NCBI GenBank assembly: GCA_016933575.1
Contig: JAFGAR010000081.1
Span: forward strand, 64,001-128,000
Length of the DNA: 64,000 nucleotides
Source of the DNA: Candidatus Thorarchaeota archaeon
GTDB taxonomy: Archaea; Asgardarchaeota; Thorarchaeia; Thorarchaeales; Thorarchaeaceae
Reading direction: 5' to 3'
Shown here piece after piece: positions 54,904 through 64,000 of the stretch (the first letter of the stretch is position 1; each line of letters begins with the position of its first letter). A program made the translations under genes and the position numbers. The notes under the pieces are model-generated. The model searched no databases and was not told the origin of the DNA. It worked only from the letters and a program-made list of their open reading frames with translations.

Positions 54904-55278
54904 TCATTCGAATCCTATAGGTTCTATTGGACCCAGGAATGTTTGAAACTCCAAAGCCCTACCTTCTGGGTCTTTGGCGAAGAACTGGTATATATCATAT
55001 CTCTCATTTTCAATTGGCGTCGTTGTAGCAATATGCTTTAACATATCATACATGACATCAACATCCTCCTTAGTTGGATAGAACAACGTGATCATCCCTT
55101 CCAGTTCAGCTGTGTCACGATTACAAAATCCAAGTAGAAGATTTCCGTGACTAAGAATTGTACAATCTTCCTGTTCTAACCAGATGTGCATTCCTAGTTC
55201 ATTGATATAAAAATCAGTAATCTCTTGCAATCTGGTAGTTCTAAAGAATACTATGCCTGCCACTAGAAGCACCTCCAT
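54904..55278 (-). CDS. VOC/glyoxalase family protein
   Basis: FYINELG, FFAKDPEGRALEF. Confidence 0.8.
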   Translation of the reverse strand: MEVLLVAGIVFFRTTRLQEITDFYINELGMHIWLEQEDCTILSHGNLLLGFCNRDTAELEGMITLFYPTKEDVDVMYDMLKHIATTTPIENERYDIYQFFAKDPEGRALEFQTFLGPIEPIGFE

Positions 55279-55397
55279 GAATATAATTCTCTCTCCTCAT
55301 ATCCTTTTGGAACCTCAAGAACTAGATAATATGTGCGGCGCACAAAACCGCAGTAGTTGTTTCGTTTTTTAGCTGTTTTTGTTTGTTGTTCTGTTCA

Positions 55398-55437
55398 TAT
55401 CCCAACGTCTGAGTTCACGCACATAGATATTCATTCT
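55398..55437 (+). promoter_or_regulatory. Upstream motif shared with the second wHTH module
   Basis: TATCC..TCTG..CGCA..ATAGATAT..TTCT; recurs at 57751-57791. Confidence 0.4.
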
Positions 55438-55482
55438 CGTCAGCTATTGTATACAAGTATTTCAGAATGAGGTTGAACAAAA

Positions 55483-55785
55483 TTGTCCATAAAACCCGGA
55501 AGAACACCAAAGAGCGCAATCTTAGTCTTAGGCACTCTAGCAAAGGATGGACCAATGTGCCCCAACGAAATAAGTGAGAAGCTGAATATGGCTCCCCGTA
55601 CAGTGAGCTTCGCTATACGAAGTCTACTTGGCTGGAAGATGCTACGTAGAATTCCGAATCTCACGGATATGCGGTGTCCTAAGTATCATGTGAATATGGA
55701 CCTAGCTAAAGGACTTCTTCAGAAGTATAATGATTCTATCTTTACTTCTCAGCCATCAGCCATGTCTTGGAATCGAAAGATCTGA
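55483..55785 (+). CDS. Small archaeal winged-helix (MarR-like) protein, module copy 1
   Basis: PKSAILVL...GP...RTVSFA...PNLTDMRC.Y. Confidence 0.75.
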   Translation: MSIKPGRTPKSAILVLGTLAKDGPMCPNEISEKLNMAPRTVSFAIRSLLGWKMLRRIPNLTDMRCPKYHVNMDLAKGLLQKYNDSIFTSQPSAMSWNRKI

Positions 55786-55819
55786 TATGATGGTAAGCTG
55801 CTAGGAGCAAACATATCCA

Positions 55820-56251
55820 TTGCCAGAAATGATTGACCTTCCAACGAAATATCGCGAAATCATTAGGCAACAAAAAGATGCTGCACCTCATCATGATAAC
55901 TCAGAATCAGTATCTCTTCTCTTCAAGACTGATTGGGTTCGTATACTAGTAGTACAATCAGCTGATAACACGGACGTTGTTTCCATAGAAATTGAAATGT
56001 CCATGTTCGACTCCTCTCTTTCCCCCTCCTCCAGCTCTCCTCTCCCAAAACCTGAGAAGAATGCTAGCACTATACTAGAGCAATTAATTGAGCATATCCA
56101 CTATCTTCTCAGGCTTGAATCCCTAGGATTCACTTTAGAACTCGTCAGTACTGGTTGTTTACTACTGGCATATCGGGATTTTTCTGAAGATCCAAGTGAT
56201 GAGACCTTCAAGCTCCTTCTACCGCCATCATTCTCTCAAGAATGTGTGTAG
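55820..56251 (+). CDS. Unknown protein, module copy 1
   Basis: Paralogous to 58118-58543 (TDW.RILVV, IEIE.SM, YLL.LES.G). Confidence 0.75.
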   Translation: MPEMIDLPTKYREIIRQQKDAAPHHDNSESVSLLFKTDWVRILVVQSADNTDVVSIEIEMSMFDSSLSPSSSSPLPKPEKNASTILEQLIEHIHYLLRLESLGFTLELVSTGCLLLAYRDFSEDPSDETFKLLLPPSFSQECV

Positions 56252-56275
56252 AGGGAGCTATCACTATTTTTCCCA

Positions 56276-57616
56276 TTAACCAAGAAATCTCTTGACAATC
56301 TCAAGATATCCCAGATACGTTAGTTCAATAGTCCGGAGTGGTATTCTTTCATCAGTCCCGTGGAACAATGACATTATCTCAGCGGTTGTTAGACTGCCAT
56401 CATGAATACTAAAACCATAGGCATTGGTTCCAAATGCTCTCCTGAAGAACCTTGAATCAGTGGCCCCTGGAGATACCATTGGAACAAGTGCATAATCAGA
56501 GCCTCTCAAGTCTCTGACTACATTTTCAATTATACTTACAAGAGGAGAATGGATATCACTCTTATTTCCTGCTGAGTAGTCGCCCCCCATCTCAAGTGGC
56601 ACTCTCTCTATCATTGCCTCGCTACTGAGATTACCAAGTGCTTTTCGAAAGTGGTGTCTTACATACTCCTCATCCTGACCTGGCAATATTCGAACATCCA
56701 CATCAAGACATGCTTGTCCGGGTATTGTGTTCACTTTTGCTCCGCCCTCGCAAACATTTGGTGATAATGTCATTTGGCTAAGTGAATGCAAGAAGGCTGC
56801 TTCTTTCTTATTTCTCTTAGACAGTAGTGTGAGTATCAATCCCAAGAACCATCGGTTTCCCATTAGTCCTCTTGTTATTCTTCCCATACCCATGCCCTTT
56901 ATGAAAGGTTTCAGAACCGAGGTATCTCTAGGAGGTTGATACTCTGAAATCTTCTTTATAGCTTTAGCCATCTTCACAACTGCATTATCTGATTTGAAAG
57001 GAGCTGAACCATGCTGCTCCACACCCTTGAATCTCAATCTTGTCCATGCGGTCCCCTTTTCTCCGTAGAGATAGGTCAATCGATTTTCTGCAATAGGGTC
57101 TCCTCCCGCTTCGGTGATTAAGTAATCAGTTTGTACTTTGTCTGGATAGTTCTGAACCATCCAACTTGCACCAACTGTTCCAGCTGCTTCTTCATCAGCA
57201 ACCACTAGTAATTTCAAATCTCCCCTTGGTGTAAATCCTTCATTATGAAGTTGCGTGAAAGCAACGACTTGACTAGCTACTATATAGAGCATATCAAGTG
57301 CACCTCTCCCCCAGAGACAACTATCTCTAATTTCACCACTAAAGGGTGGGACTATCCAATCCTCTTCATTCTCAACAGGAACCACATCGACATGCCCCGG
57401 TCCAAGCATCAAACTTGGGTGATTTCCCACCCCCTTCATCACTGCCAGCAGATTGCCCCTCTCCGATTCGGCTTCAAAAATTTCTGGTTCAATTCCATAT
57501 GACTGAAGATACTTCTCTATTGTCCGAATAGACCGCATCTCACCACCTGGTGGGTTCACGCATTTATTACGAATCATCTCTTGCATCAGGGCTGTTATTT
57601 CACTGAGAATCTCCAT
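56276..57616 (-). CDS. M20 family metallopeptidase/deacylase
   Basis: GHVDVVP, GRGALDM, ADEE, HGS, GATDSR, HGTDE; start ATG 57616. Confidence 0.88.
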   Translation of the reverse strand: MEILSEITALMQEMIRNKCVNPPGGEMRSIRTIEKYLQSYGIEPEIFEAESERGNLLAVMKGVGNHPSLMLGPGHVDVVPVENEEDWIVPPFSGEIRDSCLWGRGALDMLYIVASQVVAFTQLHNEGFTPRGDLKLLVVADEEAAGTVGASWMVQNYPDKVQTDYLITEAGGDPIAENRLTYLYGEKGTAWTRLRFKGVEQHGSAPFKSDNAVVKMAKAIKKISEYQPPRDTSVLKPFIKGMGMGRITRGLMGNRWFLGLILTLLSKRNKKEAAFLHSLSQMTLSPNVCEGGAKVNTIPGQACLDVDVRILPGQDEEYVRHHFRKALGNLSSEAMIERVPLEMGGDYSAGNKSDIHSPLVSIIENVVRDLRGSDYALVPMVSPGATDSRFFRRAFGTNAYGFSIHDGSLTTAEIMSLFHGTDERIPLRTIELTYLGYLEIVKRFLG

Positions 57617-57750
57617 CAAAATCATATACAAAATTAAGATTTCCAACTAAAAAGGACTATGTATGCTTCTATCTTGTATCTTCTTATCTTAGGTGCATAT
57701 TTCCGAATCTCCAAGTTCAAAAATCTACGTTATACTTAGGAAAAATGTTG

Positions 57751-57791
57751 TATCCTGAACTCTGCTTCTCGCATGAATAGATATGCCTTCT
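57751..57791 (+). promoter_or_regulatory. Upstream motif shared with the first wHTH module
   Basis: TATCC..TCTG..CGCA..ATAGATAT..TTCT. Confidence 0.4.
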
Positions 57792-57830
57792 ATGCACTGT
57801 ATTACATACGAAATCATAGGATGCTTAACG

Positions 57831-58091
57831 ATGCTATCAGGAATACGATTACCAAAGAGTGCTGTACTAGTACTGGATTATTTGAACAAAAGAGGACCAC
57901 TTCCACCCAGAGTCATCAGTGAAGAAGCCAAAGTTCCTCTCAGAACTGTGACCTTTGCTTTAGATCGTCTTGTTGATACAGAAATCTGTAGAAAAGTACC
58001 CAATCTCGCAGATATGCGTTGTACATTGTACACAATAAATCAAGAGAAAGCCCGCGCTGTTTTTGATAGATACGGGTTGCGTTTCTCGTAG
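57831..58091 (+). CDS. Small archaeal winged-helix (MarR-like) protein, module copy 2
   Basis: PKSAVLVL...GP...RTVTFA...PNLADMRC.LY; start ATG 57831. Confidence 0.75.
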   Translation: MLSGIRLPKSAVLVLDYLNKRGPLPPRVISEEAKVPLRTVTFALDRLVDTEICRKVPNLADMRCTLYTINQEKARAVFDRYGLRFS

Positions 58092-58117
58092 ATTCCGGTT
58101 GTTATCTGTATTCTAAG

Positions 58118-58543
58118 GTGTGGCAAATGATGCTATCTCCCTCTGAAATGAATCAACGGTATCAAGAAATAGTGCATGCGCCTATTAGTTCAGTTGATAG
58201 TGAATGTGGGGAGTCCATTTCCAATTTATGCAACACGGATTGGATCCAGATATTAGTAGTACGTAATCTCGATTCTCCAAATATATGTAATATCGAAATT
58301 GAGATCTCCATGCCCACATGTGTCGTAGAGCCATCTCTAACCTTACCGCAACCTCTACGAGAAAAAGCTCGGACGCATATTGAGAACACAATCAATCATC
58401 TAAAGTACTTGCTAAATTTGGAATCTGTGGGAATGACTCTTGGAGTGCTCTCAGCTGAAGGAATTTGGAGTGCAGTACTCGAAATGAAGGACTCTCCTGA
58501 TGATACTCTGTTCGAAAAAATCTCCCCTCCTGTGGTGATCTAG
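58118..58543 (+). CDS. Unknown protein, module copy 2
   Basis: Paralogous to 55820-56251. Confidence 0.75.
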   Translation: MWQMMLSPSEMNQRYQEIVHAPISSVDSECGESISNLCNTDWIQILVVRNLDSPNICNIEIEISMPTCVVEPSLTLPQPLREKARTHIENTINHLKYLLNLESVGMTLGVLSAEGIWSAVLEMKDSPDDTLFEKISPPVVI

Positions 58544-58651
58544 CCCAGCTTCTCAATTGCTCTCTATTCGCTTCTCACATCAATTTCGTGTAAGTCGAGT
58601 CCTTTATGAGGAAGCAAACATTTTTTGAAACCACTCAATGGAAGTGTCTCT

Positions 58652-60673
58652 ATGACAGTTGATGTATCAAAGGCAATGACGATTAAATTATCGTCTGAGC
58701 TTCCTCCAAAACCTGTTTTCGATCCCAAGATACGTCGAGCTCCTAATCGCGGATTCGATCTCAATCCTCGGGAAACTATTATCGCAGTGAAGAATGCACT
58801 ACGCTATATTCCTGAGAGTCTTCACAAGGCACTCGCTCCTGAATTCTTGGATGAACTGCTCACACGAGGTCGTATCTACGGGTATCGATATCGCCCACAG
58901 GGTGCCATCAAAGCAAGACCTGTTGATGAATACAAGGGAATTCTAGAAGCTCGTGCCATTCAACTGATGATTGACAATAACCTTGACTTTGATGTGGCTC
59001 TTTATCCATATGAGCTTGTGACGTATGGCGAGTCAGGTCAAGTATGTCAAAATTGGATGGAATATATTCTCATCAAAAAATATCTTGAAGCCATGACCGA
59101 CGAGCAGACCCTTGTGGTAAGTTCCGGTCATCCTGTCGGCCTCTTTCCATCTCGTAAAGAAGCTCCTCGAGTCCTCTCTACAAACGGTCTCATGGTGGGC
59201 ATGTTCGACACTTCTGAAGGTTTCCATCACGCTGCGCAACTTGGATCGGCAAATTACGGACAGATGACAGCAGGGGGGTGGATGTACATTGGACCACAAG
59301 GCATTGTTCATGGAACTTACATCACTCTGCTTAATGCGGGACGACTATATCTTGGTCTTCCTGATAATAAGGACCTTCGTGGGAAAGTCTTCTTAACGTC
59401 TGGTCTTGGCGGGATGAGTGGTGCTCAAGGAAAGGCTATTGAGATAGCTGGAGGAATAGGCATCATAGCAGAGGTTGACAAGAGTAGAATTGATACGCGA
59501 CACGAACAGGGTTGGCTGAGGAGGTTCTCTTCTGACTTGGATGAGATATTCAAATGGGTTGATGAATACAGAACCAAGGCTGAACCCGTATCCATTGGAT
59601 ACTATGGTAATGTCGTTGACTTGTGGGAATATGTTCTTGAGAACAATATTACCATTGAGCTTGCCTCGGATCAGACTTCCTGCCATGATGTCTATGGTGG
59701 TGGTTACACTCCACAGGGTGTTTCATTCGAAGAGGGGCGCGAGCTTCTCAAGACTGATAGAGACCGATTCAAGAAACTAGTGGATGCTTCTCTACGTCGT
59801 CAGTTTGAACTCATCGATGGGATGTCAAAGCGTGGTACCTACTTTTGGGACTATGGAAATTCATTCATGAAAGCTGTCTTTGATGCTGGTGCGAAGAGGA
59901 TAGCCAAGAATGGAAATGATACCTCTGAGGGCTTTGTCTTCCCCTCCTACGTTGAGGACATCATGGGGCCAATCTGCTTCGATTATGGCTATGGTCCATT
60001 CAGATGGGTTTGTCTAAGTGGAAAACATGAAGACCTGAATCGAACAGATGCCGCAGCAATGTCTTGCATTGACCCGAACCGTCGAGGACAGGACCGAGAT
60101 AATCACCATTGGATTCGAGATGCTGAGAAGAATGCACTTGTGGTTGGTTCTCAAGCAAGAATCCTCTATGCTGATGCACAGGGTCGAGTAAATATTGCAC
60201 TGGAATTTAACAGACTGGTTCGAGAGGGAAAAGTAGGTCCTATCATGCTTGGTAGAGACCATCATGATACCGCAGGGACTGATTCTCCATTCCGAGAGAC
60301 CGCTAACATATACGATGGTAGCAATGTCATGAGTGATATGGCTCATCAGTGTTGGTCTGGAAATGCAGCTCGAGGAATGACAATGTGTGTTCTCTCAAAT
60401 GGAGGCGGTGTTGGAACAGGGAAAGCAATCAACGGTGGATTCGGACTTGTTCTCGATGGCAGTGACCGTGTAGATAGAATCATTCAACTTGCTCTTGACT
60501 GGGATGTCATGGGCGGCGTTGCTCGTCGCGCCTGGGCAAGAAATCCACCCGCGATTGAGACCGCGGCAGAGTGGAACAAACGAAATACAACCCATGGTCA
60601 AATCTCACTTCCATTCATTCCAGAAGACGGTCTTGTAGAAGATCTGGTCAAGAAACGATTTGAGGAGGACTAA
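58652..60673 (+). CDS. hutU: Urocanate hydratase (long ~675 aa form)
   Basis: PYELVTYG, YGQMTAGGWMYIGPQGIVHGT, SDQTSCH, GPFRW, GRDHHD, DSPFRET. Confidence 0.95.
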   Translation: MTVDVSKAMTIKLSSELPPKPVFDPKIRRAPNRGFDLNPRETIIAVKNALRYIPESLHKALAPEFLDELLTRGRIYGYRYRPQGAIKARPVDEYKGILEARAIQLMIDNNLDFDVALYPYELVTYGESGQVCQNWMEYILIKKYLEAMTDEQTLVVSSGHPVGLFPSRKEAPRVLSTNGLMVGMFDTSEGFHHAAQLGSANYGQMTAGGWMYIGPQGIVHGTYITLLNAGRLYLGLPDNKDLRGKVFLTSGLGGMSGAQGKAIEIAGGIGIIAEVDKSRIDTRHEQGWLRRFSSDLDEIFKWVDEYRTKAEPVSIGYYGNVVDLWEYVLENNITIELASDQTSCHDVYGGGYTPQGVSFEEGRELLKTDRDRFKKLVDASLRRQFELIDGMSKRGTYFWDYGNSFMKAVFDAGAKRIAKNGNDTSEGFVFPSYVEDIMGPICFDYGYGPFRWVCLSGKHEDLNRTDAAAMSCIDPNRRGQDRDNHHWIRDAEKNALVVGSQARILYADAQGRVNIALEFNRLVREGKVGPIMLGRDHHDTAGTDSPFRETANIYDGSNVMSDMAHQCWSGNAARGMTMCVLSNGGGVGTGKAINGGFGLVLDGSDRVDRIIQLALDWDVMGGVARRAWARNPPAIETAAEWNKRNTTHGQISLPFIPEDGLVEDLVKKRFEED

Positions 60674-61455: not shown

Positions 61456-62985
61456 ATGATTTTGATAGATGGAGAAAGTCTTTCGATTGAGGATGTTGTT
61501 CAAGTTGCTCGTTATAAGAAGAAAGTCGAGCTTGCTGTAGCAGCAATTGAAAAGATCAAAAAGAGTCGTGATGTCGTCGAGACTGCCATCAATGAAGGAC
61601 GTACTGTATATGGAGTGAATACTGGTTTTGGTGAACTTGCAAGTGTTTCCATCAGTAGAGTAGATTTAGCGAGTCTTCAAGTGAATTTAATCCGAAGTCA
61701 TTGTGTTGGTGTTGGTGACCCCTTCGTAGTTGAGGTCGTCAGAGGAATGATGCTTCTTCGAGCAAACGCTCTCGCTAAAGGATATTCAGGGGTTCGACCT
61801 GATGTGATAATCACTTTGATTGAAATGCTTAATGCTGGAGTGGTTCCAGTCGTTCCCCAACAGGGATCCGTTGGTTCAAGCGGTGATCTTGCGCCTCTTG
61901 CCCATATGGTCTTAGTGATGATTGGTGAGGGTGAGGCTTTCTACAAAGGAAAGCGAGTGCCCGGCTGGGATGCCATGGAGAAAGCAAAAATCAAACCGTT
62001 GGTTCTTCAAGCGAAGGAAGGCGTAGCGCTCATCAATGGAACGCAGCCAATGACATCAATAGGAGTTCTTGCAGTATATGATGCACTGTCTACAATTAAG
62101 GATGCAACTATTGCTGCTTCAATGAGTCTTGAAGCTCTTCGAGGAACACGTGCAGCGCTTGATTCAAGAATACATTCACTTCGTCCGCATGAAGGGCAGG
62201 TTGAGATAGCTGATGCAATGCGCCGAGTCCTTCTTGACAGCGAGATTAATCAATCACATGCAAACTGTGGTAAAGTCCAGGATGCCTATTCACTCCGGTG
62301 TTCTCCCCAAGTCATCGGGGCATCCTTAGACACAATACGTTATGTCCAGAGTATCTTGGAGACCGAGATAAATTCTGCAACTGATAATCCTCTTGTCTTC
62401 CCGGAAAACGGAACTGTTGTATCTGGTGGGAACTTTCATGGTCAGCCTATAGCCCTAGCAATGGACTTTCTTTCTATTGCTCTATCAGAGCTTGCAAACA
62501 TCGCTGAGCGAAGAATCAATCGGCTCGTCAACCCTCATCTAAGTGGTCTTCCTGCCTTCCTCACCACTGAGAGTGGACTTGAATCAGGGATGATGATAGC
62601 TCAGTATACTGCAGCAGCTCTTGTATCAGAGAATAAGGTACTTGCACACCCTGCAAGTGTTGACTCAATTCCTACAAGTGCTGACCAAGAAGATCATGTC
62701 AGTATGGGTACGATTGCGGCACGAAAGGCTTCTACCATTCTAGAGAATGTCAAGAATGTCATAGCAATCGAGTATATGTGTGCCGCCCAAGGCATTGACC
62801 TACTTTCCCCTCTAAGACCATCAGGACCTCTCCAAACCGGTCATTCAACACTACGAAAAGCTATCACTAAACTCGAAGACGATCGAGTTCTTAGTGAGGA
62901 TATCTCCAAGATTCGTGAATTAATGGACCAAGGTGCTATAGTGAAAAGTGTTGAGACCATCACGGGTCATCTGTTGGATGTCTAA
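61456..62985 (+). CDS. hutH: Histidine ammonia-lyase
   Basis: YGVNTGFG, GSVGSSGDLAPL, KEGVALINGT, QDAYSLRC, SGGNFHG, QEDHVSMG. Confidence 0.95.
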   Translation: MILIDGESLSIEDVVQVARYKKKVELAVAAIEKIKKSRDVVETAINEGRTVYGVNTGFGELASVSISRVDLASLQVNLIRSHCVGVGDPFVVEVVRGMMLLRANALAKGYSGVRPDVIITLIEMLNAGVVPVVPQQGSVGSSGDLAPLAHMVLVMIGEGEAFYKGKRVPGWDAMEKAKIKPLVLQAKEGVALINGTQPMTSIGVLAVYDALSTIKDATIAASMSLEALRGTRAALDSRIHSLRPHEGQVEIADAMRRVLLDSEINQSHANCGKVQDAYSLRCSPQVIGASLDTIRYVQSILETEINSATDNPLVFPENGTVVSGGNFHGQPIALAMDFLSIALSELANIAERRINRLVNPHLSGLPAFLTTESGLESGMMIAQYTAAALVSENKVLAHPASVDSIPTSADQEDHVSMGTIAARKASTILENVKNVIAIEYMCAAQGIDLLSPLRPSGPLQTGHSTLRKAITKLEDDRVLSEDISKIRELMDQGAIVKSVETITGHLLDV

Positions 62986-62987
62986 TT

Positions 62988-64000
62988 CTAGGGACCAAAT
63001 TTTGTATGTACTAATTGCCCATTCACAACCACGGTATGAACAAGATTGACTCCAAATCTCCAAGTAAGAAATTCAGGATTCGGACAATCAAGAATTAGAA
63101 TGTCTGCTCTCTTACCTTCTTCTATGCTTCCTATAGAGTCAGCTCGATCAATAGCGTGTGCTGCGTTAATCGTGACTGCAGATATGGCTTCTCGAGGTTG
63201 CATCTTCATCTTATAGCACGCTAGTGCAATTGTAAAGAACATGGACTCGTTGGCGCAATTGGGGTTGAAATCCGTAGCAAGGGCTACAGGCAATCCCATC
63301 TCTATCATCTTGCGTGCGTCTGCATAGTTTGTATTGAGGCTAAATGCAGTTGCTGGGAGTAGGGTTGCAATAGTACCTGCCTTCAACATTGCCTCTAATC
63401 CATCATCTGAGGCCATCAGTAAGTGGTCTGCTGATATGGCTCCCATCTCAGCCGCTAGTTCTGCACCCCCTAGCTGAACGATCTCATCAGCGTGAACTTT
63501 CAATTTCATGCCTGAGCATTTTGCAGCGTATAGAATATTACGTGACTGTTCAACTTCAAAGACTCCTTTTTCACAGAAGACATCACAGAATTCCGCCAAT
63601 TTCTTTTCAGCAACCGCAGGTATCATCTCATTGATGAGAAGGTCCACATAATCCTCAGCACGTCCCTTGAATTCTGGTGGGATTGCATGTGCCCCTAAGA
63701 ATGTTGAGACCAGACCTGATGGTATCATTCGACCAAGCTCTTGAACAGCTTGGAGCATCTTGAGCTCATTTTCGGTGTTTAATCCATAGCCACTCTTTGC
63801 CTCAATGGTCGTGGTTCCCATGCTCAACATACTCTCTGCGTAAGAGAACGCATTGCTGACAAGCTGATCTTTTGTTGAAGCTCTCGTATGCTTCAATGTA
63901 TTAAGAATCCCACCTCCTGCTTCAAGAATCTCTAGATAGTTCTTTCCTTCCAATTTCATCGAGAAGTCCTTCTCTCGAGACCCTCCAAATGTAAGGTGGG
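62988..64000 (-). CDS. hutI: Imidazolonepropionase (5' truncated by the window edge)
   Basis: GGGI, GTTTIEAKSGYGL, FLGAH, DVFCE, HADE, SADHL, ATDFNP. Confidence 0.93.
   Translation of the reverse strand, partial: HLTFGGSREKDFSMKLEGKNYLEILEAGGGILNTLKHTRASTKDQLVSNAFSYAESMLSMGTTTIEAKSGYGLNTENELKMLQAVQELGRMIPSGLVSTFLGAHAIPPEFKGRAEDYVDLLINEMIPAVAEKKLAEFCDVFCEKGVFEVEQSRNILYAAKCSGMKLKVHADEIVQLGGAELAAEMGAISADHLLMASDDGLEAMLKAGTIATLLPATAFSLNTNYADARKMIEMGLPVALATDFNPNCANESMFFTIALACYKMKMQPREAISAVTINAAHAIDRADSIGSIEEGKRADILILDCPNPEFLTWRFGVNLVHTVVVNGQLVHTKFGP

Follow-up and report, generated by a model that had tools for sequence, protein, structure and literature searches.

Paired genes for a minimal MarR-type winged-helix protein and an acidic partner beside the histidine-utilization cluster of Thorarchaeia: a possible two-protein transcription switch

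The DNA analyzed here (the window, a stretch of 64,000 nucleotides, nt; G000:C57:64001-128000) belongs to a 3.47-Mb metagenome-assembled genome (MAG), 85% complete, of Candidatus Thorarchaeota. It carries two copies of a two-gene module, a (W_a, P_a) and b (W_b, P_b), in which a small winged helix-turn-helix (wHTH) protein, W, is encoded next to a partner of ~140 amino acids (aa), P. We lean, if only slightly, toward the reading that W and P form a lineage-specific transcription switch of Thorarchaeia made of two proteins, which would be autoregulated and act locally. The evidence comprises the genes themselves, their old duplication and operon-like spacing, a footprint in the promoters, the synteny with histidine-utilization (hut) genes, the fold topology, and the complementary charges of the two proteins. 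An initial annotation, based on the letters alone, had reported two same-strand pairs of a wHTH gene and a gene for a ~140-aa partner around a reverse-strand M20 peptidase gene. The open reading frames (ORFs) are indeed arranged in this way, and all of the protein motifs quoted there as shared by the W copies and by the P copies were found. The module and its putative promoters comprise the following features.

55408..55430, + strand: putative promoter/operator core of W_a, with the 17-mer TTCACGC-A-C-ATAGATAT at 55414-55430, ~55 nt 5′ of the TTG start
55483..55785, + strand: W_a, a basic minimal MarR-like wHTH protein of 100 aa (isoelectric point, pI, 10.2) with a conserved C-terminal tail, assigned from the ORF, Pfam and the tree
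55820..56251, + strand: P_a, an acidic partner of 143 aa (pI 4.6) from an undescribed family, with an alternative ATG start at 55829
57761..57784, + strand: putative promoter/operator core of W_b, TCTG..TCGCATGA-ATAGATAT, ~50 nt 5′ of the ATG at 57831
57831..58091, + strand: W_b, a minimal MarR-like wHTH protein of 86 aa, assigned from gene call P0153 (86 aa) and orthologues
58118..58543, + strand: P_b, an acidic partner of 141 aa (pI 4.5), the syntenic copy immediately 5′ of hutU

A longer W_b ORF starting at 57783 would cover the promoter motif. The start at 57831 was preferred because the orthologues and the gene call support it.

The two copies have diverged considerably. W_a and W_b share 44% identity over 77 aa (E = 4e-23), and P_a and P_b share 37% over 131 aa (E = 2e-25). 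For the relatives, ~60 neighborhoods were collected and their genes clustered, and trees of W and P were calculated from ~45 related genomes. The W tree resolved a W_a clade of 20 rows and a W_b clade of 22 rows (Shimodaira–Hasegawa-like approximate likelihood ratio test, SH-aLRT, 98 and 97, respectively), with one copy of each per genome. In the P tree, P_a formed one clade of four species (SH-aLRT 94), P_b formed two, and several more clades were present. Because the a and b copies of both proteins fall into separate clades, the duplication is, as judged from these trees, older than the radiation of the genus. The old duplication under selection that had been proposed from the window is thus supported by separate clades for the a and b copies of W and of P. 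Pairing is conserved for the b copy: W_b is followed by P in all 22 tree members, with operon-like gaps of −4 to +54 nt. Two relatives carry a damaged W_b. In G012 (L041, G012:C8 3225-3275), its last 17 residues remain, fused to a WD40 ORF, and P_b is intact; in G006 (L037, G006:C176 7620-7769), a 50-aa W_b fragment remains, P_b is missing and the W_a–P_a pair is intact. These cases could reflect true decay or assembly artefacts.

W was assigned to the MarR-type regulators by several routes. The Pfam MarR model matched with E = 3e-4 and 21 bits, below its cut-off of 24.6 bits, and HTH_24 matched W_a with 24.9 bits, above its cut-off of 21.9 bits. The nearest solved relative by sequence was a MarR protein (4b8x, E = 7e-5). 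Many orthologues carry a precomputed PF01047 match; in public records, nearly all from Thorarchaeota MAGs, they are named as MarR family or hypothetical proteins. Foldseek comparison of the W model gave MarR proteins exclusively as top matches, with Rv0880 in first place (E = 3e-5, probability 1.00). The model contains helices at residues 18–30, 35–42 and 46–58, a two-stranded wing and a short C-terminal helix at 80–89. The N- and C-terminal helices that serve dimerization and ligand binding in MarR proteins are absent from the model, and the protein is 86–100 aa long and strongly basic (pI ~10.2). W is a truncated but ordinary member of a very well known superfamily, and its earlier designation as a wHTH regulator holds. 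The proposal of redox sensing through a cysteine in the wing fared differently. The DMRC motif is found in 4 of 45 W sequences, both window copies included; most have DMRR, and a few have Leu, Lys or Gln at this position. A conserved redox switch was rejected because Arg occupies the site in most orthologues.

The same genome encodes four more small W-like wHTH proteins that have no P nearby (C140:75408-75704, C5:34133-34426, C7:15163-15408 and C140:23211-23456). Two of these carry coiled-coil-like C-terminal tails recalling Lrs14/Sso10a-type proteins.

The very small size and high basicity of W, the additional solo paralogues with their coiled-coil-like tails and a weak NCBIfam match to Lrs14 (E = 0.11) would also suit a small architectural or global DNA-binding protein of the Lrs14 or Sso10a type. 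P would then be an acidic chaperone or DNA mimic, a role that its acidity suits, keeping W soluble or off the DNA. We regard this as decidedly unlikely: W_a and W_b are single-copy genes, both at fixed metabolic loci and each with a specific conserved promoter element, and P paralogues accompany other, specific AsnC-type regulators.

The promoter elements provide a further line of evidence for a regulatory switch. A shared upstream motif had been noted at 55396-55442 and 57749-57795, and it is present at both sites. Local alignment of the two intergenic regions gave a score of 24, which was reached in 35 of 2000 dinucleotide shuffles (p ~0.02), so that the similarity is marginal within the window. 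The composite TCTG-N4-7-CGCA-N1-3-ATAGATAT occurs at just two sites in the 3.47-Mb genome, the pattern having been built from these same two sites. Independent support came from the relatives. In 20 species, the W_a gene is preceded by a nearly invariant TTCACGCAAATAGATAT, ~55 nt 5′ of the start codon, which forms a phylogenetic footprint. Its core, the 17-mer TTCACGC-N-ATAGATAT, is near-invariant in the 20 orthologue promoters. On its 3′ side comes a Shine–Dalgarno-like GGAGG, 10–15 nt from the start codon (GTG or TTG). The W_b promoters of the relatives have a related core, (C/G)ACG(C/T)G-N-ATA(G/C)A(T/A)A, with a conserved ATTCTGAAC and a distal TTTCGGAAGCT on its 5′ side. The distal conserved blocks lie where the divergent genes have their promoter zones.

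The position of the motif would fit an archaeal B recognition element (BRE) and TATA box lying ~25 nt 5′ of the transcription start. The W_a core is likely a BRE/TATA element with an overlapping operator. The overlap of an operator with the core promoter is suggested by the invariance of the 17-nt block, which was retained while the proteins diverged. The probable autoregulation claimed by the initial annotation agrees with a conserved element in the promoter zone, as far as promoter sequences can tell. A genome-wide count of CGC-N1-3-ATAGATAT yielded 7 sites, only one of which looks promoter-like (contig C9:115-127). This site, TTCGCGTATAGATATTCG, is a near-copy of the W_b-type core of the sister species; on its 2.2-kb contig, an ORF for an MFS-like transporter of 420 aa follows ~200 nt to the 3′ side and may be a further member of the regulon.

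P proved to be a family without known relatives in the collections searched. The window copies had no family match in Pfam, NCBIfam, PADLOC or PHROGs, none of 131 aligned P relatives scanned singly matched Pfam, and the P profile had no family match among PDB sequences. The designation of the partner as unrecognized therefore stands. A word-indexed search of a 5.8-billion-protein collection returned four proteins, and an exhaustive profile search returned 160 representative clusters at 50% identity. The best 150 of these 160 matches were stand-alone proteins of ~105–177 aa, apart from fragments and one 7228-aa match, a repetitive protein that looks spurious; no fused forms of P were found among them. 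P was found in only three families of the phylum (57/85, 18/19 and 10/22 genomes) and was not found in ~270 genomes of the phylum's other families. The window's genome has two P genes only, its relatives from 1 to 7. The P proteins have a median pI of ~4.5 and carry a net charge of ~−10, a strong acidity that argues against direct DNA binding and fits a basic partner.

The AlphaFold2 model of P, built on the 131-sequence alignment, reached a mean predicted local distance difference test (pLDDT) of 87.6 and a predicted template modeling score (pTM) of 0.81. It contains helices at 7–21, 82–101 and 127–133 and strands at 30–36, 40–46, 54–60, 105–109 and 114–121. The order is α1, β1-β2-β3, a low-confidence 20-residue loop, α2, β4-β5 and α3, and a second model, of a P_b orthologue, gave the same order. 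Near-invariant residues are E59, Y95, L99, G103, F104 and P135. The order of elements differs from β-α-β-β-α-β and Pfam gave no match, which sets P apart from RAM/ACT domains. The Foldseek comparison that had been proposed for the partner returned SrcA, ExsC, CesT, SicP, SycT, SpcU, YbjN, AmyR and the C-terminal domain of MotA as best matches, with E-values from 2e-3 upward and TM scores of 0.27–0.40, none of them significant. In three structure searches (Foldseek against the PDB, VIA wide and the VIA second look), no match rose above noise. The structural look-alikes remained below the noise ceiling of 7–8 of the tool. Their scores cannot separate them, because all have the same β3-α-β2 meander and one helical layer. 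HutP was absent from every list of structure matches of P (Foldseek, VIA). We describe P as a new sequence family with a predicted secretion-chaperone-like topology and unproven ancestry.

Two side observations belong here. The ESM Atlas feature search with P_a (55820-56248) returned clusters of eukaryotic VPS13/BLTP/Hobbit-like proteins (0.92–0.95), and a weak PDB profile match pointed to ATG2 (E = 0.49). These are probably due to chance, through the composition of amphipathic β-strands, and no other tool agreed. The genome also contains a true YbjN-family ORF (G000:C38:27053-27361, − strand, locus L096; 23.2 bits, above the cut-off), which is unrelated to P in sequence. YbjN ORFs are widespread in one sister family within the phylum (16/19 genomes).

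A fused W–P model was collinear with Rio2 (1zar) over ~207 columns (E = 4e-4), and Rio2_N was not found in any of the 18 genomes of the genus. W and P might accordingly be read as a split, degenerate relative of Rio2, which combines a winged helix with a kinase N-lobe, P being the pseudokinase-like lobe. We give this reading hardly any credence. The TM score was only 0.24, and the comparison of the P profile with the Rio2 alignment (hhalign) gave 0.4% over 13 columns, on which kinship of P with Rio2 or a kinase N-lobe was rejected. The similarity of W to Rio2 was that of wHTH domains in general. P has neither the Gly-rich loop nor the β3 Lys, the near-invariant residue of β3 being Glu, and G047 holds both Rio2 and P. 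As for Rio2 itself, the best Rio2_N hit in the window's genome had E = 0.8, and 11 of 12 representatives of the phylum's other families gave a match. The single RIO-domain ORF of the window's genome is at C7:37735-38286 (273 aa). Rio2 may have been lost or have strongly diverged in this genus of Thorarchaeia.

The main argument for a functional link of P with transcription factors comes from P genes outside this locus, where a winged-helix regulator is the constant neighbor. Roughly half of the P paralogues sampled in relatives are not accompanied by W and lie instead beside or near the gene of a ~300-aa double-wHTH protein of the AsnC type. In one well-supported P clade (SH-aLRT 99), the gene that follows P, on the same strand, encodes such a ~300-aa protein, its two winged helices being of the HTH_24/AsnC type; genes for a C25 peptidase, ornithine cyclodeaminase, HpaB-like enzyme, phosphoribosyltransferase, TetR and MFS proteins are among the neighbors. 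In other clades, P is part of an ABC-2 transporter operon, and the double-wHTH gene is a few genes distant. Among the 63 P loci from related genomes, P lies directly beside W or a double-wHTH gene in 44 and within two genes of one in 50, as compared with 193 of 760 other genes in the same loci, a comparison that is biased because the loci were centered on P. The enzymes and transporters beside P vary from clade to clade. Independent occurrence of the two genes, which had been named as a finding that would speak against the system, was seen in part, W_a being often without P and P often without W.

P could also act independently of W, as a small protein that serves the neighboring catabolic enzymes or transporters (hut, peptidases, ABC-2 exporters) as an adaptor or in their assembly, and be merely co-transcribed with W. 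Its paralogues in ABC-2 operons and beside genes of peptidases and amino-acid catabolism, sometimes 3–4 genes from any wHTH gene, speak for such a role, as does the presence of W_a without P in most genomes. We consider it unlikely all the same, since a wHTH regulator is the only type of neighbor common to most P clades, and the enzymes and transporters beside P change between clades.

The surroundings of the module in the window consist of the following features.

54904..55278, − strand: glyoxalase/VOC-like gene with a weak Pfam Glyoxalase match, divergent from W_a across a common intergenic region of 204 nt (cluster c6)
56276..57646, − strand: M20/M25/M40 peptidase gene (Peptidase_M20, E = 1e-26; M20_dimer, E = 1.5e-18), with an orthologue in L004
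58594..58611, + strand: hutU promoter element CGAGTCC-TTTATGAGG, just 3′ of the P_b stop codon and kept across orthologous loci
58625..60673, + strand: hutU (urocanase), the longest ORF starting at TTG 58625
between hutU and hutH, − strand: endonuclease-V-like gene, from the ORF listing
61456..62985, + strand: hutH (histidine ammonia-lyase), a member of the conserved cluster
62991..64000, − strand: amidohydrolase gene, probably hutI (imidazolonepropionase; Amidohydro_1, E = 2e-19, and conserved synteny), cut by the end of the window

The first hut gene is presumably hutU, as read from the collinear similarity of its ORF to urocanases, and the second we take to be hutH from reading its sequence. 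The true start of hutU is probably ATG 58652, as the conserved promoter spacing and the N-termini of the orthologues suggest. The M20 peptidase gene is convergent with P_a and divergent from W_b. On the 5′ side of W_a lie the divergent glyoxalase-like gene, a WD40 protein gene and an energy-coupling factor (ECF)-type ABC transporter.

The W_a/W_b–P_b locus is conservedly linked to the hutU/hutH/hutI histidine-utilization cluster, a link that the initial annotation did not contain. A fixed gene order is kept in ~30 genomes: ECF transporter, glyoxalase-like gene, W_a, P_a where present, an Fe-S protein gene and/or the M20 gene where present, W_b, P_b, hutU, hutH and hutI. The glyoxalase-like gene stands 5′ of W_a and divergent from it in most relatives. 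An M20 gene bracketed by two full pairs is particular to the window's genome; in the relatives, the W units are directly in tandem (G017, G025) or parted by the Fe-S protein gene, with or without M20. The Fe-S gene, which takes the place of M20 in most relatives (L048-L063), encodes a protein of 376 aa that begins with a 'putative Fe-S cluster' domain (PF04060); some relatives have both genes.

This setting also bears on a toxin–antitoxin-like or defense module, which had been offered as one possible identity of the pair, with W as the wHTH antitoxin and P as the toxin. A small two-gene operon, a motif of the kind found in autoregulation and 1–7 copies of P per genome would be in keeping with it. 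The synteny is fixed in core metabolic loci across the genus and the family, the ~60 neighborhoods examined showed no mobile-element context, and PADLOC, PHROGs, Pfam and NCBIfam gave no match for P. P is strongly acidic and has no known toxin fold, and W_a is kept without P and P without W. This is the weakest of the rival explanations, and we think it very improbable.

From the observations on the two-protein switch, we infer the contact between W and P, the operator, the regulon and the signal. W would bind an operator that overlaps the unusual BRE/TATA-like element (TTCACGC-N-ATAGATAT) in the promoter of its own gene and would repress itself. It would probably also repress its divergent or downstream neighbors: the glyoxalase-like gene, the gene for the M20 peptidase or the Fe-S protein, and possibly the hut genes. 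P would be co-transcribed with W and modulate it by protein–protein contact. P may scaffold or dimerize W, as a 'split MarR' in which dimerization and sensing reside in a separate polypeptide; because W is without the MarR dimerization helices, P could supply dimerization or signal sensing. Alternatively, P may sequester W and titrate it off the DNA on a nutritional signal from amino-acid or histidine catabolism. Precedents come from proteins of the fold that P resembles: ExsC, Spa15, HrpG, Scc4 and AmyR all influence transcription through their binding to regulators or to RNA polymerase (PMC5398634).

Several findings weigh against the two-protein switch. In 16 of 20 genomes, W_a has no P of its own, P_a being present in the window's genome and three others; together with the P paralogues that have no W, this does not support the obligatory pairing that the initial annotation had proposed to test. 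The conserved 17-mer might be merely a strong core promoter. A read-through pseudo-fusion of W_b and P_b (L058, at the W_b stop; block alignment) was modeled with a pTM of 0.62 and a disordered linker, and this model speaks neither for nor against a W–P contact. The comparison of the P profile with 30 Asgard YbjN ORFs (hhalign) gave a probability of 0.55%, with 108 columns collinear; neither YbjN (PF10722) nor CesT was among the 25 Pfam families listed for the 131 P sequences at E-values up to 1, and kinship of P with YbjN was rejected on these grounds. Finally, hutU, hutH and hutI each have conserved promoter elements of their own, and an operator common to the hut and W promoters was looked for and not seen. 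The k-mer comparison of the hutU, hutH, hutI, M20, Fe-S and glyoxalase promoters likewise found conserved elements specific to each gene and no common operator. The sole motif sharing among these promoters was the W_a motif, read in reverse from the divergent glyoxalase-like gene. Since a different conserved element follows the P_b stop codon, the W–P unit and hutU would have separate promoters, and control of the hut genes by W therefore rests on adjacency alone.

Amino-acid catabolism is thought to be central to the lifestyle of Asgard archaea. To our knowledge, transcription control in these organisms is almost unexplored and the regulation of their amino-acid catabolism is unknown. We know of no description of Asgard archaea in which an acidic, secretion-chaperone-like protein is repeatedly associated with winged-helix regulators. 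The literature on Thorarchaeota hut genes, the chaperone-like fold and Asgard ARPC4 did not contain it, although no search was aimed at this association. As a system, the locus is compact and open to testing, with a minimal MarR-type DNA binder, a conserved promoter/operator element and an undescribed acidic family that recurs beside different winged-helix regulators. If P binds and controls these regulators, it would represent a new class of archaeal co-regulator, and a family now annotated only as 'hypothetical protein' would gain a function. What is new is the lineage-restricted P family. A transcription factor with a protein modulator is, as such, of a known kind, and the function given here is a proposal drawn from genes and models.

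Among known systems, the MarR regulators are closest to W. Rv0880 (4yif), HpaR (7el3) and E. coli MarR (5h3r) share with W the DNA-reading core of the winged helix-turn-helix. MarR proteins are typically small, autoregulated regulators beside catabolic genes. They have ~140–150 aa as compared with 86–100 aa for W, which, according to its model, is without the terminal helices that form the dimer interface and ligand pocket. Unlike MarR proteins, W is encoded with a separate partner protein. P, in turn, shares its predicted α-β-β-β-α-β-β-α order with the class I type III secretion chaperones SrcA (3epu), ExsC (3kxy), CesT and SicP and with YbjN (6vu7) and AmyR (5fr7), and is similar to these proteins in size (~130–140 aa) and in its acidity.

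ARPC2 (p34) and ARPC4 (p20) of the eukaryotic Arp2/3 complex resemble P at the level of the fold only, with scores below the noise ceiling of 7–8. The Pfam ARPC4 model had no match in the window's genome or in any P sequence, and unlike the ARPC subunits, P neighbors regulators and catabolic genes and not cytoskeletal genes. The weak likenesses of the P model to secretion chaperones, ARPC2/ARPC4 and kinase N-lobes are no evidence of kinship, but they make an experimental structure of P worthwhile. A bolder reading would see in P, an unrecognized Asgard protein family found in three archaeal families only, a fold of the secretion-chaperone/ARPC2–ARPC4 type and an obligate adaptor for truncated winged-helix regulators (again a 'split MarR'), even distantly related to the scaffold subunits of Arp2/3. 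This is highly unlikely in our judgment. The logic of the two-protein switch itself is the same as that of the Lrp/AsnC regulators, in which an HTH is joined to a RAM effector domain: a wHTH together with a small α/β module that responds to amino-acid status. P paralogues stand beside double AsnC-type wHTH proteins and, unlike the one-component form of Lrp/AsnC, P is a polypeptide of its own.

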